Assembly (NCBI GenBank): GCA_045613315.1
Contig: JAZLAV010000018.1
Coordinates: forward strand, 33,975-97,974
DNA from: Candidatus Enterousia sp.
GTDB lineage: Bacteria; Pseudomonadota; Alphaproteobacteria; Rs-D84
DNA: 64,000 nt
Reading direction: 5' to 3'
Below, in pieces: positions 4,597-62,409 of the stretch. The notes beneath the pieces are model-generated. The model saw only the letters and a list, made by a program, of their open reading frames with translations, made no database searches and was not told where the DNA came from. Numbering within the stretch: position 1 is the first letter of the stretch; every line of letters starts with the position of its first letter. A program made the translations under genes and the position numbers.

Positions 4597-4941
4597 TTAT
4601 TTGTTTATCCAACCGCGGATGATGGCGGCGTGCTCGATTGTTTCCATGGCATCGTGCCACAATGCCGCGGCACGATTTTCCGCCCAGATATATTGGTGCG
4701 GGGCACGACGACGATCGCCATATTTTTTCATGACCCCCAATTGTTCGTCGGTTAATTTCCCGCACAGATACAATTTTGTCACCAATGATTCAACATCCAT
4801 CAATTCGCACACGCGACGGGTCGGATTGCCATGTTGGCGTGTAAAACCATTTTGAACCGATTTGGAATACAAGAACCAAAACCATAATTGTTCGGCGCTT
4901 TGGAATTTTTCTGGTGTATATGCGATTTGTGTTTTTGTCAT
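4597..4941 (-). CDS. hypothetical protein (114 aa)
   Basis: Intact ORF with a GGGAG RBS upstream. No domain recognised. Confidence 0.4.
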   Translation of the reverse strand: MTKTQIAYTPEKFQSAEQLWFWFLYSKSVQNGFTRQHGNPTRRVCELMDVESLVTKLYLCGKLTDEQLGVMKKYGDRRRAPHQYIWAENRAAALWHDAMETIEHAAIIRGWINK

Positions 4942-5178
4942 TTGTTTTTCTCCCTTGGTAAATTAAATTTAATGTATTTATAGACACGAATTAGAACGAT
5001 ATTAAATATTACAACCGCCGGTTGAAGTGCGAATCGGTTTTCCGATTCGTGTATAGAATTTGGTTTTGTGTAATCGAATCGGCCGTTGCGGTTTGTTTTT
5101 AATAAAAACCGCGCATTTAATGCGCGGTTTTATTGCATATGGTACATTATGAAGAGTTCATTGTGCCCCCCCGTGGAT

Positions 5179-5231: not shown

Positions 5232-7580
5232 TCACAAAATCGGTGGAAAACAATCGCCACCCGTTTGTGGACAGCAATTGAATCCTTGGTCACCCATATC
5301 GGTATAAATTTCGCCGGTACAGCAACCGTTTGCATCCGGTGCCAATCCGTCTTCACAGGTTATAATGTTTTCCGTCGGTGCCGTTTCAACGGGCAACTTT
5401 TCTGATTGGTACGGATTCTTTATCGAACCATCGTCATTATATTTCAATCCCAAAACCTGTTCGTTATAGGTTTTTGTATCGGTGGCTTTACTGGCGATAC
5501 TGTTGTTGTTGCTTGTGGATTGTTGATTTTGATAAACTGCTTCCTGGCGAGCATTATTTATTGCCTGGTAATTACTGGCCTGGCAATATGCAACCAGTGT
5601 ACTGTACGAATACCCCAATTTATTTAACGCATCCGCGATGACGGCATTATAATCCATTGCACGCAACGCACCGGTTTTGGAATCTGTAATACAATATTGC
5701 GACAGGTTAAACGAACGTGCCTGGCCAACCCACGAACCGTCGTCATAATCGGCCTTGGCGTCCCAATGGGGAACCGAACGAACAACGGTTGCCCTGTTCG
5801 CTGCGCCGTTCATATAGCATTTTTTACTGCCGTCTGTACAAGCAACCATCAAATCATACGGTGAATAAACTGTAATGCGTGTACCGGCCGGAATTGTGAA
5901 CGGTGGAACGGTATTGTCCATCATATCAACCAATAACTTTTGTGCCACCTGGTTCCAGGCGGTAATAATTTCATTTTTCGCCAGTTCAGATGAACGCATT
6001 GTTCCGCTTTGCACAACCGTGTTGTTGTCCAAATCAATTTGATTAACAAATTTATCGGCAACGGGTGCAATCATATTTACCGCCGCCGGTACAATGGCGG
6101 TTAACATCGGCATAACAAATTGTTCCAAGTAATCGGTACTGCCGCGACCGGGCACACCAACACGTCCCTGGGCATCGGCCGATGTTGGTTCGGTACCATT
6201 TTGGAAATTAAATTCAACGCCGTTTGGTAAAACAAATTGATACCATTTTATATTCATACGACCAATTGCCTTGTACGGGCCCGGAACATTTCCGGTGACA
6301 TAGCCCAACATAAGTGTTCCCGTGGGAATAATGATTGTTCGACCGTTATCTGAATATACGTTTCTATCAACTGTGGCACGCACAGGGAAATGCAGATTAT
6401 CGGCTTCCAGTGCAGCATCCGCCCGAACGTCGGAAACAATCGTTGCGGGAATCGGTTTGTATTGGCGCAATATAAATGTTCGGTCGTATGGTTGGGTTGC
6501 AACAATGGCATTTTGGTCCGTGGTGCCATAGGACACATCTGTATCCGGTTGCTTCGTTACCAGTTTTTTCATGCCCCCAGTCGGCGCGTCGGCAACAACG
6601 GCATCGGTTGCGCGCACGGATGTTTTACGTGCCCATGGCGCGTCATTCAATGTTGGCATATTGCCAGACGATACAACATTTCCAATATGTTCGGCATCGG
6701 TACCGATGCGTTTGCCATCACCGTTAATGTCGGTGATAATACCGCTGTCCGGGTTGTAAACACCGGTGGCGTTTTTGCATTCTGTATCTGAAAAAGGATG
6801 AAAATAGTATGCACCGTGTTCCGGTTTTATCCAACCAATTTGATTGCCCGATGCATCATATCCCGGGAACGCAAAATCAGAACAAGATTCCGACGCACGT
6901 GCGACCGGTTTTGGTTCTTCAATCGGTGTCGAAATTTCCTTTTTCCCGGCGAACGGGTCGGCGGGCGCAATCGTTTTTATTTCCGATTCAATTTCGTTGA
7001 CCGCGGGTTTCACAACGGGTTCCGGTTCCACGATTGGTTTTGCAACCGGTTTCGGTGTTTCTTTGATTTCAGGTGCGGTGGCGCCCAAAATAACAGTTAT
7101 TTTTTCCGCTGTTTTCATCGTGTCGGGTTCCGATGCCGCGCGCCAATCAACATACATTGTCACCGTTTCCGGTTTCATTGCGATATTTGGTGCGTATTCC
7201 AAAATCACACGGCACGGAATCGCAGCGGTTATTTCGCCGGCATCCGTACAGGTCGTTTTTACATTAAATCCATCGATTTCCTTGTTCCGGCGAACGGTTG
7301 CACGGGCGGGCGCATTGGTTTTTACGGTAATTGTTTCGGTTTTTTTTGTACCAACCATAACATTTGCCCAATCAACAGTGTCATTGGACAACGTGACCTT
7401 GACCTGGACATCATTTACCTTTTGAGTGTTTTTTTTCGCCCTGCCGCCGCCAATTAACAATGTTAACAGTATAACAACAACCAAAAATGCCGCCCCCAAC
7501 AGCAACCATTGAACGTATTTTGGTGTTGTATTGCGCAAATCTGAAAATTGCTGGCCAAGTTTATTCATGTTAATTCGCAC
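5232..7580 (-). CDS. virB10: type IV secretion system protein VirB10/TrbI family, with about 200-aa Cys-rich C-terminal extension
   Basis: N-terminal TM (WLLLGAAFLVVVILLTLLIGG), a Pro-rich linker (KETPKPVAKPIVEPEPVVKPAVNE), and the VirB10 C-terminal barrel region (NGRTIIIPTGTLMLGYVTG...ADAQGRVGVPGRGSTDYLEQF...FTIPAGTRITVYSPYDL). Possible starts are GTG at 7580 or ATG at 7568. Confidence 0.75.
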   Translation of the reverse strand: MRINMNKLGQQFSDLRNTTPKYVQWLLLGAAFLVVVILLTLLIGGGRAKKNTQKVNDVQVKVTLSNDTVDWANVMVGTKKTETITVKTNAPARATVRRNKEIDGFNVKTTCTDAGEITAAIPCRVILEYAPNIAMKPETVTMYVDWRAASEPDTMKTAEKITVILGATAPEIKETPKPVAKPIVEPEPVVKPAVNEIESEIKTIAPADPFAGKKEISTPIEEPKPVARASESCSDFAFPGYDASGNQIGWIKPEHGAYYFHPFSDTECKNATGVYNPDSGIITDINGDGKRIGTDAEHIGNVVSSGNMPTLNDAPWARKTSVRATDAVVADAPTGGMKKLVTKQPDTDVSYGTTDQNAIVATQPYDRTFILRQYKPIPATIVSDVRADAALEADNLHFPVRATVDRNVYSDNGRTIIIPTGTLMLGYVTGNVPGPYKAIGRMNIKWYQFVLPNGVEFNFQNGTEPTSADAQGRVGVPGRGSTDYLEQFVMPMLTAIVPAAVNMIAPVADKFVNQIDLDNNTVVQSGTMRSSELAKNEIITAWNQVAQKLLVDMMDNTVPPFTIPAGTRITVYSPYDLMVACTDGSKKCYMNGAANRATVVRSVPHWDAKADYDDGSWVGQARSFNLSQYCITDSKTGALRAMDYNAVIADALNKLGYSYSTLVAYCQASNYQAINNARQEAVYQNQQSTSNNNSIASKATDTKTYNEQVLGLKYNDDGSIKNPYQSEKLPVETAPTENIITCEDGLAPDANGCCTGEIYTDMGDQGFNCCPQTGGDCFPPIL

Positions 7581-35888: not shown

Positions 35889-36377
35889 ATGTCAAAACAA
35901 ATACAAATTCGGCGCGGTACCGCAGCCGAGCATAGCAGTTTTACCGGTGCAATCGGTGAACTTACAATGGATACAACCAACAAAACAATCCGGGTCCACG
36001 ATGGCACAACCGCGGGTGGCACAGTTTTGGCGAAACAAAGCGAAATACCCGATTTAACAAATGTTGATTATGTAATTGAAACACAATTACCCACGGCGGA
36101 AAATAATTACACATGGTACAGAAAATACAAAAGTGGCTGGGTCGAACAGGGGGGAATACTAAATGCGGGAGGCACATCTGCAGTAACGGTTTCATTACCA
36201 ATCACAATGAACAATTCAGAATATAATATTCACGCAACTTGTATAAATTCTGTCGAATATTGGTGTGGGTCATCCGCACACACAACAAACACATGTACAT
36301 TTCGTACAACAAACCGTAACGGCGAAGGTTATATGCAACGGGTTAGTTGGTGTGTTTCTGGTATAATAGCAAACTAA
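35889..36377 (+). CDS. phage tail-fibre-like protein (N-terminal IQIRRGTAAE...GEL...DGTTAGG motif)
   Basis: MSKQIQIRRGTAAEHSSFTGAIGELTMDTTNKTIRVHDGTTAGG matches the conserved N-terminus shared by phage tail fibres and the major tropism determinant (IQLRRGTAAEW...GELG.ETDTGK.KIGDG). RBS AAAGGA. Confidence 0.55.
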   Translation: MSKQIQIRRGTAAEHSSFTGAIGELTMDTTNKTIRVHDGTTAGGTVLAKQSEIPDLTNVDYVIETQLPTAENNYTWYRKYKSGWVEQGGILNAGGTSAVTVSLPITMNNSEYNIHATCINSVEYWCGSSAHTTNTCTFRTTNRNGEGYMQRVSWCVSGIIAN

Positions 36378-37552
36378 AATTTTAAACACGTACTTATAAT
36401 ATCAGACAAATTATGCTTATAATTTTGATAAGTATAATTTTGTCTGGTTTCGTCTTTGACCTTTTTTGATAAATTTCTTAAATCAGATTCCGACATTTCC
36501 AGCATTTTATTTATGCGTTTTTCTATTTCGGTTATGGATATCTTGTTAAACTCAAATCCGTATTTACTGATGTTTAATCCCGTACTTTGTGAACAAATTG
36601 GTATTAAACCGCCGTTTGCCATACACATTAAAGTCGCAACCGCGCCACCTTCGGATACAGACGGTGTAATTACGGCGACATTATTATCCATAATACGTTT
36701 AAAATCATCGGACTCAACATCAACAAATTCGTAATATGTTATATTTTTGTGTTTGCCGGTAAACACATCTTTATAATAATCATACAATATTTGTTCGCCC
36801 CTGCTAAAACCACATATTGTTAAATTCAATTCGGGGTGTTTTTTAAATAATTCGATTACTAAATCCAATCCTTTGTGCAAACCACCGGACGAACCAAAAA
36901 ACAGGAAGTTTGTTTTTATGTTTGTAAAATCTTTACTGTCAATATTAATATCATATGTGTCATAATAAAATGCATTTAAATTAAAAATACGATTTTTTAC
37001 GTTATGTGTGTTTTTAACAAAATCATTACCCAATACGATAATATTTTTAGCAAAATTATTTATTACTGAATTATCTTGGTCACAATAACGCGCAGAATCA
37101 GGACACCATTTGCCGGTCGCGTTGTAAAAATCTATAACTTTCTGTATGGTTACAATATTTGAAAAATCGATTGAGCAACCCGGACTGTAAAAAATAGTAT
37201 TTATTTTTGGGTTTGAACACGCTATACGAAAATTATGCCCAAAACCATAAATAACATCATAATTTTCTATTTCATCATGTGATAATAATGTGTCCCAATT
37301 TGCAACATCAACGGTATAACCCATTTCATTAAATATTTGCGCAGCAGTAAAACATTCCATAAAATTTGTATGTGCCCTTGAAAGTCCTTTTGTGAATGGT
37401 GTGGTTATATATGATACAAGAACCCGTTTTTTTCGGTGTTTTGCATTAAATACGTTATATAAAATATTTCGTCCGGCTTCGTGGTGTCGTATTGCCACGC
37501 GCCAACCATGGAAAGGAATTATTTTTAATAATAATTTTTTGTATAATTTCAT
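36374..37552 (-). CDS. glycosyltransferase family 1 (GT-B, GT4-like)
   Basis: 392 aa. The C-terminal ...NVAVITPSVSEGGAVATLMCMANGGLIPICS is an EX7E-type GT1 motif region. Very AT-rich. Confidence 0.6.
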   Translation of the reverse strand: MKLYKKLLLKIIPFHGWRVAIRHHEAGRNILYNVFNAKHRKKRVLVSYITTPFTKGLSRAHTNFMECFTAAQIFNEMGYTVDVANWDTLLSHDEIENYDVIYGFGHNFRIACSNPKINTIFYSPGCSIDFSNIVTIQKVIDFYNATGKWCPDSARYCDQDNSVINNFAKNIIVLGNDFVKNTHNVKNRIFNLNAFYYDTYDINIDSKDFTNIKTNFLFFGSSGGLHKGLDLVIELFKKHPELNLTICGFSRGEQILYDYYKDVFTGKHKNITYYEFVDVESDDFKRIMDNNVAVITPSVSEGGAVATLMCMANGGLIPICSQSTGLNISKYGFEFNKISITEIEKRINKMLEMSESDLRNLSKKVKDETRQNYTYQNYKHNLSDIISTCLKF

Positions 37553-38343
37553 TGTTTTTTACCTTGCTTGTTAAACAATATATGAAATCCGAAAATTGTG
37601 ATTACCTTTTTGTCAAAAAACATAAAATTGTTTATTGAAAATATTTTTTGTATCAAAGACAATTGGCTGTTAAAAGCATGATGAATTTGTTGTTTCGTAA
37701 ACATTTGACTTACAATGTATGATTTTTCTTTTTGCCAGCGATTTTCCCCGGATGCACCATTTACATCAAAATAACACGCCCTGAACGGTATATGTTTATA
37801 CGAACATTTGTGTATATGAATAAATTCAACCCATTTTTTCCAATCGCTTACTATTTTTAAATTTTCATCATACATACCGTATTTTTCAAATAAATCACGC
37901 TTTATCAGCGTTCCTTGATGTGGTAAAGTATCCAGAATCAAAAAATTTGTATCTATTGTATCCGGAACAGTACACTCTTTATCGTATTCTTTTATGTATC
38001 TGTGACCATAAATAATATCTGCATCCAATCCGGCAGATACAAATTTTTTTAACACGTTTTTATCATACAATGAATCACCGGCATTCATAAACAAAAGGTA
38101 ATCGCCACTGGCGCGTTTGATACCTTTGTTCATCGCGTTATAAATGCCGTTATCTTTTTCAGATACAAAATAGTCCATATGCGATTTATATTTTTCAAAT
38201 ATGTCCAATGTTTCTTGGTTTGAACCGCCATCGATAACAATCCATTCAAAATCTTGAAATGTTTGATTTATAATGCTTCGGCATGTTTGTTCTGTGTTTG
38301 GGGCATTATAACATATTGTTATGATGCTTATTTTTTTACTCAT
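37549..38343 (-). CDS. glycosyltransferase family 2 (GT-A)
   Basis: ISIITICYNAPNTEQTCRSIINQTFQDFEWIVIDGGS...FMNAGD (DxD). Overlaps the downstream GT by 4 nt. Confidence 0.7.
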   Translation of the reverse strand: MSKKISIITICYNAPNTEQTCRSIINQTFQDFEWIVIDGGSNQETLDIFEKYKSHMDYFVSEKDNGIYNAMNKGIKRASGDYLLFMNAGDSLYDKNVLKKFVSAGLDADIIYGHRYIKEYDKECTVPDTIDTNFLILDTLPHQGTLIKRDLFEKYGMYDENLKIVSDWKKWVEFIHIHKCSYKHIPFRACYFDVNGASGENRWQKEKSYIVSQMFTKQQIHHAFNSQLSLIQKIFSINNFMFFDKKVITIFGFHILFNKQGKKQ

Positions 38344-39211
38344 AATTTACGGCCCTTTTTAATTTGAAATATTTTATTGGGTGATGAAAAAGCATGTGTT
38401 TTGATAAAAACATCGGATTAAAAAATCGGGATTTGCGCACCACTTGCAGTAATTTTTTTCGCAAAACAGGATTGTCCGACAGAAAATTCAACATATATAA
38501 TTTGATTTTGGCTGTGCTTTCTTGTTGGATTTGTTTTTGCCGGATACTTACATTTTCGCCGTGCCAACGATATTTCAATAATATATCTGGTAAATTATGT
38601 ATTTGTGTAATTTGTATCATGCGGGCCCACAAATCATAATCTTCGGCATTGGTGTATTCCGCACGATACCGTAAATCGTGTTTGATAAATATTTCCCTGC
38701 GTATCATAGCACTTGGGTTTGCAATATTACACATATTCAACATATCGATATATGAAATATTTTGTTTCATATGTACATCTGTGTCAGAACATCCAAATTG
38801 ATGATACGATGTTCCCAAAACCCCACATTCGGGATGGGTGTTCATATAGGCGACCTGGGTGGCAAAACGTTTTGGTAATGAAACATCGTCACTGTCCATA
38901 AGCGCGATATATTCGCCAGAACATAAAGAAAGTCCCTGGTTAAGAACCACAATACGTCCATTGTTCGTGGGGTTGTTTATAAATTTGATTCTTTTATCTT
39001 GTTTTGCATATTGGGCAATAATGTTGGCGGTGTTGTCTGTGGAACCGTCATTTATGATGAAAAATTCAAAATCAGTAAATGTTTGTGATAAAATACTTTC
39101 AATCGCCTCGGCAATATATTTTTCAGAGTTATATGCGGTCATTAACACCGATACTCGCGGGGTGTGCGATGGCGTGGCCGTGGTGCGACCCGCGTTTTCT
39201 AATGATTTCAT
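38336..39211 (-). CDS. glycosyltransferase family 2 (GT-A)
   Basis: VSVLMTAYNSEKYIAEAIESILSQTFTDFEFFIINDGSTD...LMDSDD. Confidence 0.7.
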   Translation of the reverse strand: MKSLENAGRTTATPSHTPRVSVLMTAYNSEKYIAEAIESILSQTFTDFEFFIINDGSTDNTANIIAQYAKQDKRIKFINNPTNNGRIVVLNQGLSLCSGEYIALMDSDDVSLPKRFATQVAYMNTHPECGVLGTSYHQFGCSDTDVHMKQNISYIDMLNMCNIANPSAMIRREIFIKHDLRYRAEYTNAEDYDLWARMIQITQIHNLPDILLKYRWHGENVSIRQKQIQQESTAKIKLYMLNFLSDNPVLRKKLLQVVRKSRFFNPMFLSKHMLFHHPIKYFKLKRAVNYE

Positions 39212-45467: not shown

Positions 45468-45649
45468 TCGTTGGTTGCAAAGATAAATAAAAACCACCGT
45501 CCGTATGGGCGGTGATTTTTGTTGGGTATTGCGGAATGTGTATTATGATAAAAATATGCAAAACAATCGTTAGAAAAATTTTTGTAAAAAATCACGCAAG
45601 TGGGGCACAATCATTGCCGAGTTTTTGATGTGGTTTTTAATATTCAACA

Positions 45650-46290
45650 AATTATTTGACGGCGACAATCACAAACGCGGGTAATCCCCATCCAAAATTT
45701 TGTATTTCCCGCCCGCGGCGGAGTGTCACGAAGTGACGGGGTGGGTATTCGGTGTCGTTTGTTCCGATGAACGGTTGGAACCCTCCCCGCCCTGCGAGCC
45801 ATCCCCTCCGATGGAGGGGAATTATTCTCTGGGCCCAGTTTCCAGAAAAACGCAATGCGTTTCCCAGGCCCCCGTTTCATTTTGTCATTGCGAGCAAAGG
45901 GTACCCACAAAATGCAACGCATTTTGCGGGGGCCGCCGGCGAAGCAATCCAGTCAATAGTGTATGGGCGTTCCGCTCACGGCTTTATTACACCCTGGATT
46001 GCCGCGGTCGCTACGCTCCCTCGCAATGACAAAGCCGCCACCCACCCACCAAACAAAATTATTCCCTTTTGGGTTTTCTGTGTTATAATGAGTATTGAAT
46101 CCAATGGGAATTGGGTTCGGGCTGTGGTAAGCCTACAAAAATCCGGTGCAAAAGCATCGTAATCTGATGTTTTTCGGTGCCTTTTGCACCGTTATACATC
46201 CCCGATTGTTTGGTCGGGGAACAGACTTGATTTTTGGTCTTTACCACTCCCCGACCGCTTTTCCTTTGGCGGTCTTTTTCTTTATAACCA
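45650..46290. repeat. GC-rich, palindrome-dense non-coding island
   Basis: About 640 bp that is markedly GC-richer than its flanks, with no coherent ORF. There are at least 10 short perfect or near-perfect hairpins: gtcacgaagtgac, cccctccgatggagggg, aaaacgcaatgcgtttt, cgccggcg, ggtgcaaaag..cttttgcacc, ccccgattgtttggtcgggg, gaccgcttttcctttggcggtc. Also a distant inverted pair tgtcattgcgag (about 45888) and ctcgcaatgaca (about 46021). Confidence 0.55.
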
Positions 46291-46301
46291 ATGGAACAAA
46301 C

Positions 46302-47348
46302 ATGGCAAATGTACATTTTGATAACGCAAAACGTAATAAAAACGATGAGTTTTATACTTGTTATGAGGATATCGAAAAAGAATTAAATCACTATGCCAAG
46401 TATTTCAAGAACAAGGTGATTTATTGCAATTGCGATGACCACGCGGGAATTGGGCTGGGAACACCAAAATCAAACTTCCTTAAATACTTTGCCGATAATT
46501 TTGAGGCATTTGGCATTAAAAAAGTAATCGCCACCCATTATGAACGCGATGGCGCATCCACAATGTATGTGTTGGACCACGATAACACCGGCGATGGTAT
46601 TATTTGCAGCGAGGATATAGAAGAAATACCATTAAAGAGTAATGGCGATTTTCGTTCGCCCGAGTGTATTGAATTGTTAAAAACCGCGGACATCGTAATT
46701 ACAAACCCGCCATTTTCGTTGTTTGGTGAGTATGTTGCGCAACTAATGGAATATAAAAAGAAATTCATAATTATTGGTAATGATAATTGCCGAACCTATA
46801 AAGATATATTCCAATTGATAAAAGGTAACAGATTCTGGAGTGGATATAATCATGTAAAAAAATTTGTAAAACCAGATGGGGAAATACAGCAGTTCGGTAA
46901 TGTTTCTTGGTACACAAATATACCAACAATACGACGTAATGAAAAGATAGAAACCGGTAAAAAATATTACGGATACGAAAGCATGTATTCCCAATACGAA
47001 AATTACGATGCAATAAATGTCAATAAGACGGACGATATCCCAATGGACTATGACGGCGTAATGGGCGTACCTATTACTTTTATTGATAGGTACAATCCAG
47101 AACAATTTGAAATTGTTGCCTTGGGTATAGTTGGTAGTTGTAATTTTACTAGTAATAAAAAAATGGAAATTTTGGACAAACAAGGCAACAGGACGGGTAA
47201 ATTTACATTTAATGCAAAGGGAACGTTGTACAGGAAATACAACCCAAACAATCCGAAAGATAACCCCGCCTTTGTAGATGTTGAAACAGGACAATTGTAT
47301 TCCAGCATTTATGCGCGAATTTTAATCAAAAAGAAAAAGGGGAACTAA
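46302..47348 (+). CDS. N6-adenine DNA methyltransferase, EcoRI-methylase-like family
   Basis: MANVHFDNAKRNKNDEFYTCYEDIEKELNHYAKYFKNKVIYCNCDD... and motif IV NPPF (ITNPPFSLF). The ORF-track ATG at 46146 lies inside the GC-rich island; the start was reset to the ATG at 46302. Confidence 0.7.
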   Translation: MANVHFDNAKRNKNDEFYTCYEDIEKELNHYAKYFKNKVIYCNCDDHAGIGLGTPKSNFLKYFADNFEAFGIKKVIATHYERDGASTMYVLDHDNTGDGIICSEDIEEIPLKSNGDFRSPECIELLKTADIVITNPPFSLFGEYVAQLMEYKKKFIIIGNDNCRTYKDIFQLIKGNRFWSGYNHVKKFVKPDGEIQQFGNVSWYTNIPTIRRNEKIETGKKYYGYESMYSQYENYDAINVNKTDDIPMDYDGVMGVPITFIDRYNPEQFEIVALGIVGSCNFTSNKKMEILDKQGNRTGKFTFNAKGTLYRKYNPNNPKDNPAFVDVETGQLYSSIYARILIKKKKGN

Positions 47349-47349
47349 T

Positions 47350-48549
47350 ATGGTGATGAAGGCAAAGTTGTTTGATACATTAACCGTTCGGCAATTGGTC
47401 GATGGTTACCGCGATTCCGGCGACAACGGTGTTGTTGCGTTTGGTGGAAAACTTAATGTGCGACCCGCATTCCAACGCGAATTTATTTATACGCCACGTG
47501 ATAGAGACATGGTTATGAAATCGGTTTATGATAATTTACCGTTAAATGTTATGTATTGGGCACGCAACCCCGATGGCACATTTGAAATTATTGATGGACA
47601 ACAGCGCACAATTTCCATATGCCAATTTATCACGAACGATGATGGTTATGGCAATCCAATCGCAATTAACTTTGATGGTCGCCGAACGCAAACATTTAAT
47701 CAAATGTCACCGGAAAAACAGCGCGAAATATTGGACGAATATAAATTAATGGTCTATGTTTGCGATGGCACCGAAGACGAAAAATTGGAATGGTTCCATA
47801 CCATAAACATTGCCGGCAAAGTGATGGAGGAACAAGAATTACTAAATGCCGACTATACGGGAACATGGCTGACATCGGCCAAGGCGTTCTTTTCCAAAAA
47901 AGACAACAATCCCGCATTGAATTATCGGTATTATGACAACGACCGAAAACACAGTTTAATTGCACTTAACGCCGATGATGCCAATCGCCAGGCGTTACTG
48001 CATTTGGTGTTGGGGTGGATTGTGGACGGCAACCCCAAATTATATCCGGAAATAAAAAACTATATGTCGATTCACCGCGCAGACGAAAATGCAGATGAAT
48101 TGATAAATTACTATAAATCGGTTGTTGATTGGGTGCACGATGTGTTCGGTGAAAAATACTATAACGAAATGCGCGGGTTGCCGTGGGGATTAATCTTTAA
48201 TAAATATCGATATGGTAAATATGACCAATCGGTTATGGCACGCGCGGTCTCGGGACTGATGGCAGACGAAGAAATACAAAACAAACGTGGCATTTTCGAG
48301 TTTCTGTTTGATATGAACCAAAAACACCTGAACCTGCGGCAATTTGATAACGCAACCAAACGCACAATTTATCAAAAGCAGGCCGGCATTTGTCCGTACT
48401 GTGCCAACACGGAAAACGCAAACAAAGTGTGGAAATTCGAGGAAATGGAGGGCGACCATATTATGCCGTGGTCCCAGGGTGGCAAAACCATTCCAGAAAA
48501 TTGCCAAATGTTATGCAAACATCATAACAGGGCAAAAAGCGACAATTAA
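47350..48549 (+). CDS. DUF262 (ParB-like, DGQQR) domain fused to C-terminal HNH endonuclease
   Basis: EIIDGQQRTISICQF is the DUF262/GmrS-type motif. The C-terminal CPYCANTEN...EGDHIMPWSQGGKTIPENCQMLCKHHNRAKSDN is a classic HNH. The ATG is 2 nt after the MTase stop, so the two are translationally coupled. Confidence 0.7.
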   Translation: MVMKAKLFDTLTVRQLVDGYRDSGDNGVVAFGGKLNVRPAFQREFIYTPRDRDMVMKSVYDNLPLNVMYWARNPDGTFEIIDGQQRTISICQFITNDDGYGNPIAINFDGRRTQTFNQMSPEKQREILDEYKLMVYVCDGTEDEKLEWFHTINIAGKVMEEQELLNADYTGTWLTSAKAFFSKKDNNPALNYRYYDNDRKHSLIALNADDANRQALLHLVLGWIVDGNPKLYPEIKNYMSIHRADENADELINYYKSVVDWVHDVFGEKYYNEMRGLPWGLIFNKYRYGKYDQSVMARAVSGLMADEEIQNKRGIFEFLFDMNQKHLNLRQFDNATKRTIYQKQAGICPYCANTENANKVWKFEEMEGDHIMPWSQGGKTIPENCQMLCKHHNRAKSDN

Positions 48550-48580
48550 AAAACACCGCCCGAATGGGCGGTGCTTATTT
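48550..48580 (+). terminator. rho-independent terminator
   Basis: caccgcccgaatgggcggtg + cttattt. Confidence 0.65.
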
Positions 48581-48583
48581 CCT

Positions 48584-48658
48584 GGTGCCAGTTGTCGGAC
48601 TTGAACCAACGACCCTCTGATTACAAATCAGATGCTCTACCAGCTGAGCTAAACTGGC
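48584..48658 (-). tRNA. tRNA-Thr (anticodon UGU)
   Basis: The reverse complement is GCCAGTTTAGCTCAGCTGGTAGAGCATCTGATTTGTAATCAGAGGGTCGTTGGTTCAAGTCCGACAACTGGCACCA. The anticodon loop TTTGTAA gives UGU, and CCA is encoded. Confidence 0.8.
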
Positions 48659-58662: not shown

Positions 58663-58752
58663 GGATGGGTGGCAGAGCGGTCGAATGCGACGGTCTTGAA
58701 AACCGTTGAAGTCGCAAGGCTTCCGGGGGTTCGAATCCCTCCCCATCCGCCA
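58663..58752 (+). tRNA. tRNA-Ser (anticodon UGA), long variable arm
   Basis: Acceptor GGATGGG/CCCATCC; anticodon stem ACGGT/ACCGT with loop CTTGAAA; long extra arm; T-loop TTCGAAT; encoded CCA. Confidence 0.75.
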
Positions 58753-58762
58753 GTAATATTGG

Positions 58763-58798
58763 ACATCCCGTGGTAATCCCACGGGATGTTCTTTTTCG
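58763..58798 (+). terminator. terminator after tRNA-Ser
   Basis: acatcccgtggtaatcccacgggatgt + tctttttc. Confidence 0.6.
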
Positions 58799-58911
58799 CC
58801 CCATTTCTGGCGATTTTTACCCACGATATTTCCAATGTATATCGCCAAATTTATCAAACCAGCCCAAATAGCAAGCATTGATATACTTTGGCTATTTTCG
58901 TTGAGGCACTT

Positions 58912-59229
58912 TTAATGATTTTTACCTTTAAAACTATAATCTTTGCCATAATTTTGGGCGTCCTGTTTATGAGCCGCCCAATGTGCTTGTTGGTCATGGA
59001 ACACATACAAATTTGATGGACGATTGTCTTGTTTGTTTCGGTTTATATGATGCACAACTTCACCAGATTGTAAAGGTCTACCAAGTTTTATTTCTGCCAT
59101 ATGACGATGAACTAGCTGCCCTGAATCTTTGTACACTCTATATCCATTGGCATTAGTATATGTTTTTGACGTACTGCGAGAATAAGATGCAAATTTATTC
59201 CTCATTTTCATCACCTCCTTTAGCATCAA
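58912..59229 (-). CDS. HNH endonuclease (phage-type)
   Basis: …GEVVHHINRNKQDNRPSNLYVFHDQQAHWAAH… is an HNH motif with the conserved Asn and His. Confidence 0.65.
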   Translation of the reverse strand: MMLKEVMKMRNKFASYSRSTSKTYTNANGYRVYKDSGQLVHRHMAEIKLGRPLQSGEVVHHINRNKQDNRPSNLYVFHDQQAHWAAHKQDAQNYGKDYSFKGKNH

Positions 59230-59875
59230 GCATTTCCACCGGTATTAAATCTAGTAAATTACCATTACATTCTGGATAGTGTTTGCATACAATTTCTTTA
59301 AAGTCATCTTCTTTGCCATTGTTGTACTCGGACTTCAATCGTCTAACCTTTACTTCCTTAAATGGAAACCGGTTTCCACAATGTAAGCATTCAACAATTT
59401 CATCTGGTTCAAACCCCATACTGTTTTGACGGCATTCATCTATACCATCTTGCCAATCCTGTCCGGACAATTCTTCATGATAAGGCACATCACTATCCAA
59501 TGGTTCGTGTGAATATTCTGTTATTTCACGACCATCAGGTGTAAAATTATGCGATATAAAACTTGTACATCCGTATTCATTATGAACACTTTCTTCCAGA
59601 AGTTTTCGAGCTTTTGACTGTTCTGCCTCTGTCGATGTTATTAAATCTTTCCAACCATTAAAACCGGCCATTTGTGCGATCAGATGTTGCGCATTGCCTA
59701 GTTTGAATTCAAAATTTTTATCATCGTCCATTATATCATATTCAAGGAATATGCCAACGATATCAAAAAACTTTGGTTCGTATTCATAAATATCACCATC
59801 TTCAGAAAGGTAGCGGGTTTGGTAGTCTTTAAGCAGATTTTTTGCTTGTAATTTAAAGTAGTCTATATTTTTCAT
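59195..59875 (-). CDS. acidic hypothetical protein with Cys/His cluster
   Basis: 226 aa. ...ECLHCGNRF...CKHYPECNG... is a possible zinc site. Overlaps the HNH gene by 35 nt. Confidence 0.4.
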   Translation of the reverse strand: MKNIDYFKLQAKNLLKDYQTRYLSEDGDIYEYEPKFFDIVGIFLEYDIMDDDKNFEFKLGNAQHLIAQMAGFNGWKDLITSTEAEQSKARKLLEESVHNEYGCTSFISHNFTPDGREITEYSHEPLDSDVPYHEELSGQDWQDGIDECRQNSMGFEPDEIVECLHCGNRFPFKEVKVRRLKSEYNNGKEDDFKEIVCKHYPECNGNLLDLIPVEMLDAKGGDENEE

Positions 59876-60080
59876 AATATAAATCCTTTACCGCGTTTGC
59901 GGAGTTGCCCAAGTTCATTATCTAATATTGATTTTGCGTTCGTAGTCTCTTGGCTTAGATAATAAGCTCGGAGGTTTATATTATTTTATTTGTTGGATGA
60001 TGAAATCTTTACACGAACGGGCTAGCCTTCCAACAGGCATACGCACAATATAACATAAAACAGATAAAAAATCAATATGT

Positions 60081-61700
60081 TTATAGATTAAACAGTTTGA
60101 CTTGATACTCAAAGTCATCACTTCTTGATGCTTTATCCAAAATATCTCTAACTACCATATTAATTTTGCCACTTAATAGTTTATTCACGATTGACGGACT
60201 CAGATACGAGAGAGATAAATATTTATAAAATAATCTTGGTGAAGTACGAGCATTATGTATAACATTATCTACATTGCCATTTTGTTCGTATAGTTCCCTA
60301 TATTTCCATGCGGTGGCAAAGGCTTTTAGAATCAGATGGTTGTTGTCAGTGACATTTAGCACACCATTTTTACCACGGTCATATACTGTATTCACATATT
60401 TACGAAGGAATACTTTCTCTGTGATTGTTATGCTGTTATCACCAATTATGTATTCCATTTTGTCTGTGTTTGGATTCATATAATTTTCCTTGATAAAAGG
60501 CTGTAATTTTTGTGCATCGGTCGTAATTGCATAAATCAGCTGCTCTTGTGAATATACAACTTTCTCAACCAGTGATTGAATTAGGTTGCGTTTTTCTACG
60601 AAATTCATGTTTGTAACATCAATTCGTTTTAATATAGTTGCCAGATTTATGGGCAAATTCGACATATCGCTGTTCAGAAAATCTGTTATCGTTTTTATAA
60701 CAATTTCATCCACACGGCCAGCGGTTAGATAGAACCCCTTAGTCGCGTAATAATACGCGGTCTTTTTGCCTTTAGCACTGGTACGCTGGTTTATAAATTT
60801 TACACCATTGTGATTAAATAATTTTCCAGTCAATATATTGGGGGCATGTGTGCTTTGGGATTTATTATTCGCATTATTAGCCAGCGCAATTTGGACACGA
60901 TTAAATAGTTCTGTAGAAATAATTGGCTCGTGTTCGCCTTTGGCAAAAGTGCCTTCTTTTTTATTTTCGATTTGCCCGATGTAAATCTTATCGCGCAATA
61001 TACGGTGCATACTCATTTTAGCAATAGGATTGCCACCACGTATTTTTCGTTTATTGGTTTCCCAGCGTTTACCATATATACCATTTTGTTTTGCGTATTC
61101 GGTTAAATCATTCACAGATTGCAGTTCTAGATATTTTTCAAACAGGTGTCGCACTTGTTCTGCTTCGGTTGGGTTTACTACCAACTTTTTGTTAATCAGG
61201 TCATAACCCAAACGTGGTGCACCACCCATCCACAGTCCTTTGGCTTTTGATGCACGGATTTTATCGCGTACACGTTCGCTTGAAACTTCACGTTCAAATT
61301 GGGCGAACGACAGCAACATATTCAATGTTAATTTACCCATAGATGTACTGGTATCAAATGATTGGGTAATGGACACGAAGTTTGCACCATATTTCTCAAA
61401 GTATTTCATCATATTGTGGAAATCCAATATGGAACGTGATAATCGGTCAACCTTGTAAACAACCACAGTATTAACCAAACCGTGCGCCATATCGTCCAGC
61501 ATTTGTTTTAATGCGGGGCGTTCCATGGTTCCGCCAGATATCGCCGCATCACTGTAAGTTTTATAATATTGCCAACCATTAAACGATTGTGATGCTATAT
61601 ATGCCTTGCACGATTCTTCTTGGTTCTGCAAAGAATTAAATTCCTGTTCAAGTCCATGTTCAGTTGATTTGCGTGTATAAATCGCACACTTAATTGTCAT
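60081..61700 (-). CDS. large serine recombinase (resolvase/invertase catalytic domain + recombinase domain)
   Basis: N-terminal CAIYTRKSTEHGLEQ (catalytic Ser) ... VVVYKVDRLSRS, then a recombinase/zinc-ribbon region; 539 aa. Confidence 0.8.
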   Translation of the reverse strand: MTIKCAIYTRKSTEHGLEQEFNSLQNQEESCKAYIASQSFNGWQYYKTYSDAAISGGTMERPALKQMLDDMAHGLVNTVVVYKVDRLSRSILDFHNMMKYFEKYGANFVSITQSFDTSTSMGKLTLNMLLSFAQFEREVSSERVRDKIRASKAKGLWMGGAPRLGYDLINKKLVVNPTEAEQVRHLFEKYLELQSVNDLTEYAKQNGIYGKRWETNKRKIRGGNPIAKMSMHRILRDKIYIGQIENKKEGTFAKGEHEPIISTELFNRVQIALANNANNKSQSTHAPNILTGKLFNHNGVKFINQRTSAKGKKTAYYYATKGFYLTAGRVDEIVIKTITDFLNSDMSNLPINLATILKRIDVTNMNFVEKRNLIQSLVEKVVYSQEQLIYAITTDAQKLQPFIKENYMNPNTDKMEYIIGDNSITITEKVFLRKYVNTVYDRGKNGVLNVTDNNHLILKAFATAWKYRELYEQNGNVDNVIHNARTSPRLFYKYLSLSYLSPSIVNKLLSGKINMVVRDILDKASRSDDFEYQVKLFNL

Positions 61701-62130
61701 GTTTTATCCTTTTGTTTATTCCAAAGAAGAAATTACCAGACATTTTCATACCTGCGATTTTGGTTGCAACTGCTGACAATGAGGAATATTTGTCGCCATT
61801 ATATGAAAAACTGCCATCGTCATTGACTAACACTAGGTGTTTTATCCCCTTGAAATATCTTGTTAAAATTATACCTGGGACAAAGTTATATTTATTTGGG
61901 CACGCATGGTCTAAACATTGTTCTGGATTATCCTTGTATTTTCGAATTTTTACCAAATATTTATGTTCAATTCGAAGATTTAACCTGTCACATTGAATAT
62001 AATACCAAAGCGATCGCATTTGCCGTTTGAACGGATATTGTGAATATTTTGCCCACAATCGCGCCCGTTCATCAAATGACAGGGCTTTTAACTCCTCCAT
62101 CGTCTTGGGCATGTTATCTTTATATGACAT
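61690..62130 (-). CDS. small protein paired with serine recombinase (DUF2924-like)
   Basis: 146 aa. ...EELKALSFDERARLWAKYSQYPFKRQMRSLWYYIQ... pattern. It overlaps the recombinase start by 11 nt, the usual arrangement for DUF2924 partner proteins. Confidence 0.4.
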   Translation of the reverse strand: MSYKDNMPKTMEELKALSFDERARLWAKYSQYPFKRQMRSLWYYIQCDRLNLRIEHKYLVKIRKYKDNPEQCLDHACPNKYNFVPGIILTRYFKGIKHLVLVNDDGSFSYNGDKYSSLSAVATKIAGMKMSGNFFFGINKRIKHDN

Positions 62131-62409
62131 ATCGGCTCCTTTATAACGTCACGCAATTACCGCTCTGAAAGCCCCAGAAGTCAAGTTAATAAAACAAAAA
62201 TGTTTAATAGTTGTGATATGCGACAAGTTTGAAGCACAATGGCAAAACATATATCAATGGGTTTTATTGATAATTTACAATATAAACGGCGATTATCCAT
62301 AATTGTCATCAAATAACAATATAAAACAGTGGATTTTTTAGCCCTTTTATCCTATTGTATAAATTGTAAGTAGATATACAAGTTAGCTTAATTAACCCAT
62401 GGAAGCAAA

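Follow-up and report, generated by a model that had tools for sequence, protein, structure and literature searches.

The type II restriction-modification (R-M) system EcoRI is a two-gene cassette carried on mobile DNA, in which a 277-aa PD-(D/E)XK nuclease is encoded upstream of the DNA methyltransferase (MTase). Other type II restriction endonucleases (REases), such as KpnI, Hpy99I and PacI, are of the HNH type, and the characterised HNH REases known to us are small and contain no ParB/Srx-like DUF262 domain. R-M operons are controlled by C-proteins, by autorepression by the MTase, or by antisense RNAs as in EcoRI and Eco29kI. The DUF262 domain is combined with DUF1524 in GmrSD, BrxU and SspE; in the literature GmrSD-type enzymes are described as acting alone on modified DNA, and COG1479/DUF262 is stated, in general terms only, to be "often fused to HNH". 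The locus described here lies within a 64,000-nt stretch (the window) of contig JAZLAV010000018.1 of Candidatus Enterousia sp., and consists of an EcoRI-family N6-adenine DNA MTase, a DUF262-HNH nuclease and a leader upstream of both genes. The locus is a real and intact type II R-M cassette of a widespread and already catalogued family, not a new kind of defence system, and its leader is a previously undescribed structured RNA.

An EcoRI-family methyltransferase paired with a DUF262-HNH nuclease

The MTase gene occupies positions 46302–47348 of the plus strand and encodes a protein of 348 aa, with the motif DEFYT at residues 15–19 and NPPF at residues 135–138. The protein matched the Pfam family EcoRI_methylase (PF13651) over profile positions 2–345 of 345 with an E-value of 8.8e-101 and a score of 338 bits, against a gathering cut-off of 26.4, and the full-length match together with the NPPF motif places it within this family. 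Comparison with the genuine M.EcoRI of a small E. coli plasmid, which has the NPPF motif in common with it, gave an identity of 44% over 322 aa (E 2e-82). After approximately residue 275 the window MTase does not align with M.EcoRI, and because the C-terminal part diverges the specificity of the enzyme need not be GAATTC. The nuclease gene follows at 47350–48549 of the plus strand and encodes 399 aa, comprising an N-terminal DUF262/ParB-Srx-like domain (GmrSD_N/DUF262, PF03235, residues 37–169, E 5.6e-17) with the DGQQR motif at residues 82–86, a helical middle domain and a C-terminal Cys4 HNH domain (PF01844, residues 348–398, E 6e-11). The gene order is therefore the reverse of that of EcoRI, with an unrelated and larger nuclease encoded downstream of the MTase rather than upstream. 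The TAA stop codon of the MTase gene ends at 47348 and the ATG of the nuclease gene is at 47350, giving a spacer of 1 nt, and the AAGGGG Shine-Dalgarno sequence of the nuclease sits within the 3′ end of the MTase gene. The lengths of both open reading frames (ORFs) and the E-values of their hidden Markov model (HMM) matches are far outside chance. An earlier reading of the bare sequence (the original prediction) had pointed out the two ORFs, the DEFYT/NPPF, DGQQR and HNH motifs and the neighbouring tRNA-Thr, and had proposed HMM searches with PF13651, PF03235 and HNH; ORF calls and Pfam searches bore out the former, and all three domains were matched in the expected proteins.

The association between the two genes was examined in 175 loci containing relatives of the nuclease, taken from species-representative genomes, exact-protein look-ups, metagenomes and IMG/VR viral contigs, in which the MTase was located by tblastn. 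An MTase was found directly upstream on the same strand in 152 loci and close by in another geometry in 14. Six loci were cut by a contig end, and three have upstream space yet contain no detectable EcoRI-type MTase, one of the three being a fragment. Of the 169 assessable loci, which span many phyla, at least 166 contain the pair, and it was found in all 11 loci fetched later. The nuclease starts 20 nt or less from the MTase stop codon in 140 of 177 loci with the MTase-then-nuclease order, the commonest spacing being a 4-nt ATGA overlap (43 loci) followed by the +1 spacer seen in the window (19 loci). The identities of the MTase and the nuclease to the window proteins co-vary across loci (r = 0.71), indicating co-divergence, and one protein of 688 aa (P0151) is a Rosetta-stone fusion of EcoRI_methylase, GmrSD_N and HNH. 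As in type II R-M systems, the MTase and endonuclease are encoded by separate, adjacent and co-inherited genes. The near-obligate pairing, spacing, co-divergence and fusion uphold the proposal that the two proteins are a cognate, translationally coupled pair, and we hold with high confidence that they form a cognate R-M system. Taken with the varied flanks and hosts described below, the pairing, geometry, co-divergence and fusion indicate a self-contained mobile two-gene module with cooperating proteins.

Some loci depart from this arrangement. In the other two of the three loci with no detectable EcoRI-type MTase the partner is different. At L057 (451–1452) the protein upstream of the nuclease is 333 aa long and has no Pfam match, and at L157 (3031–3999) the nuclease start is overlapped by a gene for a PAPS-reductase-like domain with no more than a short EcoRI_methylase-like piece at its C-terminus; these rare partner swaps suggest that the nuclease can pair with other modification enzymes. 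In a subfamily represented by L013, L014 and L015 the pair is followed by a third gene (L013, ~6256–7431) encoding a 391-aa protein with a GmrSD_N/DUF262 domain only.

Both proteins are already covered by curated models. The MTase matched the PADLOC MTase_II model PDLC03297 along most of its length with an E-value of 2e-91, and the nuclease matched the REase_II model PDLC03418 over residues 11–398 and profile positions 8–371 of 372 (E 8.9e-98, 326 bits). Because both models of a type II system are matched, a standard defence-system scan would label the locus RM type II. An exhaustive HMMER search returned 302 clusters at 50% identity with E-values of 1e-30 or below, and RefSeq routinely names the pair "adenine-specific methyltransferase EcoRI family protein" and "DUF262 domain-containing protein". 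The original prediction had regarded the gene pair as not a described type II architecture, a view it would have withdrawn if a resource already paired such an REase family with this MTase family. PADLOC essentially does this, and with PADLOC-DB modelling both proteins and about 300 clusters at 50% identity the claim of novelty fails. The accompanying premise, that PD-(D/E)XK REases are the normal partners of EcoRI-family MTases, does not hold either. In PLSDB the EcoRI-family MTase was found on 77 plasmids and the DUF262-HNH nuclease on 70, and the classical R.EcoRI-then-M.EcoRI arrangement was seen only on small enterobacterial plasmids. On plasmids the DUF262-HNH nuclease is the commoner partner of EcoRI-family MTases, and the PD-(D/E)XK EcoRI enzyme is in the minority. 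The plasmid hosts include Firmicutes, Bacteroidota, Gamma- and Betaproteobacteria and Actinobacteria, and among the hosts of the other loci are Alphaproteobacteria, Spirochaetales, Kiritimatiellia and Actinobacteria such as Terrabacter. The same pair is carried by the cultured Flavobacterium phage laban6-1, and the family is common on phage contigs in IMG/VR. No DUF262-HNH type II enzyme was named in the literature found on PADLOC, DUF262, GmrSD and MTase classification, and the family appears to be without published biochemistry.

Alignment of 72 homologs of the nuclease revealed invariant or near-invariant motifs throughout the DUF262 domain, namely R38-P39..Q42-R43.F45.Y47, D82-G-Q-Q-R86 and W148-F149..I152-N153..G156, with D82 to R86 being invariant. 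In the HNH domain H370, N384 and the cysteines C348, C351, C385 and C389 are invariant or nearly so, providing the catalytic histidine, the Asn/His metal ligand and the zinc-binding cysteine pairs of an HNH/His-Me finger nuclease. The best structural matches of the nuclease were BrxU and SspE, with which, as with GmrSD, it has in common a ParB/Srx-like nucleotide-binding head, a helical linker and a His-Me finger nuclease. A search of solved structures by sequence gave only marginal HNH matches for the nuclease and none for the MTase. The nuclease differs from the GmrSD/BrxU/SspE enzymes in being approximately 170 aa shorter and in its C-terminal domain, which is a Cys4 HNH of PF01844 instead of DUF1524 with its EHxxP motif; the Pfam search gave no DUF1524 match in the window nuclease. 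DUF262 with DGQQR is present as in the GmrSD family, whereas lone action, as far as it can be judged from the genomic arrangement, is not, the nuclease being encoded with a cognate MTase. With the HNH type II REases it shares the ββα-metal HNH site, the zinc-binding Cys4 and a methylase partner, and it matches PDLC03418 over the full length.

In an alignment of nuclease residues 366–399 (A1), two subtypes of HNH active site could be distinguished. The window type has (G/A)DH..PW...N-R-K and the second has AHH..AF...H, the latter found in P0021, P0025, P0042, P0044, P0060, P0072, P0093 and P0104. Judging from these motifs, the two subtypes may differ in metal ligands or in cleavage chemistry.

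Structure and conservation of the leader RNA

A leader of approximately 190 nt lies between the predicted promoter and the MTase gene, and the ~200 nt upstream of the ATG are conserved in nine distinct loci (the window, L001, L016, L010, L178, L180, L182, L186 and L187), whose nucleases are 51–88% identical. An extended −10 promoter, TGtTATAAT, can be read at 46081–46089 of the plus strand, and the predicted transcription start at ~46096 would be the first base of the first helix, P1. The pattern TGnTAnAAT occurs at the same position in eight of the nine loci, about 7 nt before the first helix, and in all nine the leader is directly 5′ of the MTase ATG. The leader is divided into a 5′ domain and an expression platform, both on the plus strand. 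The 5′ domain (46096–46191) contains the helices P1 (46096–46105/46110–46119), P2 (46120–46123/46130–46133) and P3 (46144–46159/46175–46191). The expression platform (46200–46279) contains the segments S1 (46200–46207), S2 (46212–46219) and S3 (46249–46256), a terminator stem (46253–46259/46268–46274) and a U-run extending to 46279.

The window leader folded with a free energy of −82.3 kcal/mol, giving a z-score of −6.4 relative to dinucleotide shuffles, and this minimum free energy structure uses the S1:S2 helix and the terminator. Analysis with RNAalifold recovered P1, P2, the long P3 and the antiterminator helix, and 9 of the 43 predicted pairs were changed on both sides. Within the 5′ domain 95.5% of alignment cells were paired, compared to 28–52% with slid partners, and six pairs were changed on both sides; the observed values were reached by 0–2 of 500 shuffles. 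The covariance model of the 5′ domain (R1) scores 99 bits. In the expression platform S2, GGUCGGGG, pairs with S1, CCCCGAUU, including two G-U pairs. The alternative partner of S2 is S3, CCCCGACC, to which it is perfectly complementary; S3 overlaps the terminator in its 5′ arm. The terminator (GACCGCU...GGCGGUC followed by the U-run) ends 22 nt before the MTase ATG. Its stem is present in all nine copies, with a clear U-rich tail in most, and the helices of the state in which the terminator forms are 96.5% paired. The S2:S3 helix is perfectly Watson-Crick paired in eight of the nine copies, with 98.6% of cells paired compared to 26–61% when slid. Two compensatory changes, independent of each other, were found within this helix, one in L016 and L178, where GGACGGGG pairs with CCCCGUCC (U-A to A-U), and one in L186, where AGUCGGGG pairs with CCCCGACU (G-C to A-U); the 3′ arm of the terminator does not track these changes. 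The alignment of the segments (A7) was put together synthetically by concatenation. G-U pairs that exist on the plus strand only are frequent among the conserved ones, for example P1 columns 3–26 and 7–22 and P3 columns 66–86, which argues that the leader is an RNA rather than a DNA palindrome.

Searches of Rfam 15 gave no match to a described RNA family, either for the window at E-values up to 10 or for four other, longer copies at E-values up to 1. No copies beyond the nine were recovered among 188 loci using nhmmer and the covariance model, and a pattern scan of viral contigs revealed no leader. All nine copies come from hosts depleted in the dinucleotide AG/CT, and the leader is for this reason considered to be restricted to one lineage. 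A short ORF starting in P1 (MGIGFGLW) was considered as a leader peptide and rejected, as it is not conserved and L010 has no ATG. Inspection by eye of the more distant loci L002 (~4700–5033) and L008 (~900–1257) showed unrelated leaders of ~300 nt with several hairpins; both are closed by a terminator-like stem and T-run shortly before the MTase ATG, and neither was matched by the covariance model R1. Attenuator-type control may be more general in this R-M family, these two leaders having been seen by eye only.

The leader looks like a transcription attenuator. It has the canonical order of terminator/antiterminator riboswitches and attenuators, with promoter, 5′ domain, anti-antiterminator, antiterminator and terminator with U-run, and it is located where a control element of an R-M operon would be expected. 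The cassette itself contains no C-protein gene or helix-turn-helix domain. The leader has the 5′ untranslated position and the hairpin with U-run of an attenuator, as well as a covarying and mutually exclusive antiterminator, the covariation resting on few independent events. From these features it seems fairly probable that the leader acts in cis as an attenuator regulating the R-M operon. The promoter at ~46081–46089 would then give a single transcript carrying the leader, the MTase and the nuclease. By default the local S1:S2 hairpin would allow the intrinsic terminator to form just before the MTase start, switching the operon off, and a signal acting on the P1–P3 domain would free S2 to pair with S3, destroying the terminator and switching the operon on.

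Several points weigh against attenuation. The leader is known in only nine distinct copies from one host lineage, so that the covariation depends on few independent events; S1 was picked as the best-pairing 8-mer, which biases the S1:S2 helix; and a transcription attenuator does not obviously solve the problem of timing in the establishment of an R-M system, in which the methylase has to come before the nuclease. The upstream 190 nt could instead be a separate small RNA gene with a terminator of its own, or an element that acts as DNA, for instance a recombination site, a protein operator or the remnant of a miniature inverted-repeat transposable element (MITE) that is carried along with the genes. 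A complete terminator 22 nt before the ATG would produce a discrete RNA of ~185 nt in the default fold, inverted repeats can also be operators for proteins, and the restriction to one lineage and the missing Rfam family fit such an origin as well. An element acting as DNA is harder to reconcile with the plus-strand G-U pairs, in place of which the opposite strand or a DNA cruciform would have A-C mismatches, and a dispersed repeat with the single occurrence of the element in the 64-kb window. As for a separate small RNA, the stretch from the terminator to the MTase ATG shows no further evident promoter, and covariation of S2:S3 at two positions without the terminator 3′ arm following is hard to explain without alternative RNA folds. 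A small RNA gene or DNA element is consequently regarded as unlikely, while deserving more weight than any alternative to the gene pair considered below, and the attenuator is retained as the favoured reading of the leader. A literature search found no report of an attenuator or riboswitch governing an R-M operon.

Insertion, mobility and host DNA

The cassette is bracketed by a 26-nt imperfect direct repeat. The left copy, AAAAACCACCGTCCGTATGGGCGGTG (45489–45514, plus strand), is a terminator-like hairpin after cvpA, and the right copy, AAAAACACCGCCCGAATGGGCGGTG (48549–48573, plus strand), is the terminator hairpin immediately after the nuclease stop codon and is absent from the cassettes of relatives. 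The core pattern CACCGYCCGNATGGGCGGTG has two exact matches in 64 kb, one in each repeat copy, compared to 0.01 expected by chance. The 3.04-kb segment that they bracket (45515–48553) contains a GC-rich hairpin region, the promoter, the leader and both genes. The GC-rich, hairpin-rich stretch that had been noted upstream of the pair was located at ~45640–46050; it is non-coding, with no strand assigned, and is not common to the cassettes of relatives. Within it lies an element of ~150 nt with perfect 14-nt terminal inverted repeats, TTTGTCATTGCGAG and CTCGCAATGACAAA, at 45881–45894 and 46020–46033. This element (45881–46033) has one copy only in the window and may be MITE-like or similar to repetitive extragenic palindromic (REP) sequences.

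In the closest relatives, with nuclease identities of 87%, 82% and ~80%, similarity runs from ~50 nt upstream of the leader to the nuclease stop codon, and everything outside differs. The flanking genes differ at every site, even among relatives that are 80–88% identical. In the window they are housekeeping genes, encoding Ldh, a glutaredoxin-like protein and CvpA upstream and a U32 peptidase downstream. Exact-protein look-ups gave no record of either the window nuclease or its CvpA. The varied flanks, together with the occurrence on plasmids and phages, support the horizontal mobility suggested in the original prediction. Its choice of the tRNA as the integration site found no such support. 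The tRNA-Thr(UGU) gene (48583–48658, minus strand) adjoins the R-M pair, but the neighbours of the cassette include no integrase, and a search for a tRNA-derived att repeat was negative, the longest word in common with the upstream region being 12 nt and lying outside the tRNA; it is the duplicated terminator-like hairpin that brackets the segment instead. Elsewhere the cassette was observed within defence and mobile-element neighbourhoods (L184/L185 and L188), with a resolvase gene directly upstream. Genes for a KAP NTPase, Fic and T5orf172 are near the cassette in L184, and those for Kiwa KwaA/KwaB and a HigB-like toxin in L188.

The dinucleotide AG/CT is extremely depleted in the window in a strand-symmetric manner, with an overall odds ratio of 0.39 over positions 1–58000. 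The depleted trinucleotides are GAG/CTC (0.13), TAG/CTA (0.19) and AGC/GCT (0.32), and in 64 kb there are 13 CTAG and 16 AGCT sites. As the depletion is present in all three codon phases (0.30–0.45) and in intergenic DNA (0.44–0.52), it acts at the DNA level and not through codon usage. It is common to L001, L010, L016, L178, L180, L182, L186 and L187, which are related gut and rumen alphaproteobacterial contigs, and the median of all fetched loci is 0.89. The tetranucleotide GATC is also avoided, with 51 sites observed in the window and 205 expected (observed/expected 0.25, z = −10.8). In the eight related loci carrying the leader the pooled ratio for GATC is 0.20. In the window and these loci CATG is low too (0.54–0.62). 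Hosts of the R-M family outside this group show just a moderate deficit of GATC (0.62–0.70), and avoid CTAG and GGCC more. GATC was considered as the recognition site on the grounds of k-mer avoidance and rejected, the depletion being lineage-wide and not assignable to the R-M system. Sites with an AATT core are not avoided, and the count of GAATTC in the window (15 observed, 19.5 expected) does not decide specificity.

The GC content of the MTase gene (0.33–0.39) is lower than that of its surroundings (0.45–0.50), which hints at recent transfer from a distant donor. This origin was rejected, the hint being weakened by host-like AG/CT values in the two cassette genes of 0.49 and 0.32, within the window range of 0.24–0.6. 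Because both genes carry the AG/CT depletion of the host, the cassette is either an old resident or was acquired from a related lineage. A different picture is seen at 58663–64000, directly after a tRNA-Ser(UGA) gene (58663–58752), where the GC content drops to 0.31–0.39 and AG/CT rises to 0.62–0.83. This region encodes a large serine recombinase (60081–61700, minus strand) and a DUF2924 protein (61690–62130, minus strand), and unlike the R-M cassette it has the appearance of an element that truly integrated at a tRNA gene. Low GC (0.32–0.33, compared to ~0.45 in the rest of the window) was also observed at 36000–38500.

Proposed mode of action and significance for the family

Two other explanations of the gene pair were weighed. 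The MTase could be a mere unrelated or orphan neighbour within a defence island, next to a nuclease of type IV character. DUF262 with DGQQR is the hallmark of GmrSD, BrxU and SspE, the latter two are the best structural matches of the nuclease, and its HNH part gave a weak match to the PADLOC model mREase_IV (E 1.2e-3). That match scores 16.6 bits, against 326 bits over the full length for the type II REase model, and the C-terminal domain is a Cys4 HNH (PF01844) and not DUF1524. An orphan neighbour would also leave unexplained the near-obligate pairing with one MTase family in a fixed, overlapping or abutting MTase-then-nuclease order in at least 166 of 169 loci, the fused protein and the co-divergence of the two proteins, and is considered highly improbable. 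A second alternative sees in the pair above all a selfish cassette for homing or addiction, in which the HNH nuclease cuts empty target sites or kills cells that lose it, the methylase provides self-immunity and phage defence is incidental. No two relatives carry the cassette at the same chromosomal location, its boundaries coincide with the promoter and the stop codon, small plasmids and phage contigs often harbour it, and in the window the insertion is bracketed by the duplicated 26-nt hairpin; free-standing HNH genes are, moreover, classic homing endonucleases. No conserved target site was found across the insertion sites compared, however, and DUF262-HNH is not a known homing endonuclease family. 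The proposal also concerns the selective rationale and not a different mechanism, as ordinary type II R-M systems are themselves known to cause post-segregational killing. It is rated as improbable, if slightly less so than an orphan MTase.

We therefore hold with good confidence that the locus is a compact and horizontally mobile type II R-M operon. Two points count against this assignment. DUF262 is otherwise known from modification-dependent type IV enzymes, so that a non-classical mode of action is possible, and the PADLOC REase_II model may rest on a predicted rather than a characterised REBASE enzyme, the PADLOC papers citing REBASE in their reference lists only.

For such an operon the following mode of action is proposed on the basis of the protein motifs and gene arrangement. 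The MTase would methylate adenine within a specific sequence, giving N6-methyladenine and protecting the host DNA, and the nuclease would be translated by coupling to the MTase. The nuclease would recognise the target sequence of the MTase when unmethylated and cut with its C-terminal ββα-metal HNH site. The N-terminal DUF262 domain, which keeps every nucleotide-binding and hydrolysis motif of BrxU, SspE and GmrSD, probably works as a switch, either dependent on nucleotides or sensing DNA, through which the HNH domain is licensed, and would here serve a methylation-blocked rather than a modification-dependent enzyme. The obligate coupling to a methylase, which sets the nuclease apart from the GmrSD/BrxU/SspE enzymes, implies that it would be blocked by modification and not dependent on it. 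A methylation-blocked restriction enzyme is the reading supported by the present data, because it would be suicidal for a nuclease that depends on modification to be fused or translationally coupled to a methylase with matching specificity. The conserved nucleotide-binding motifs raise the possibility that the nuclease may not conform to the rule that type II enzymes have no nucleoside triphosphate requirement. The combined proposal, in which DUF262 is a nucleotide-gated licensing module of a methylation-blocked type II enzyme and the operon is under a new riboswitch-like attenuator, is put forward only tentatively.

It would be a mistake to announce the locus as a new defence system, and for the purposes of annotation its gene pair is ordinary. 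It does belong to a large cross-phylum family that is the main partner of EcoRI-type MTases on plasmids and is apparently without published biochemistry. In the host lineage, the AG/CT depletion together with the avoidance of GATC points to an unusual selective or mutational pressure at the DNA level. The leader with its alternative terminator and antiterminator folds is a candidate for a new class of cis-regulatory RNA and for a new way of controlling a toxic R-M operon; if the proposal is true, a structured RNA sensor would here for the first time set the expression of an R-M system, a part otherwise played by a C-protein, by autorepression of the MTase or by antisense RNA. The presence of a GmrSD-type DUF262 domain in an enzyme that would have to spare methylated DNA may provide a natural system for asking what DUF262 senses.

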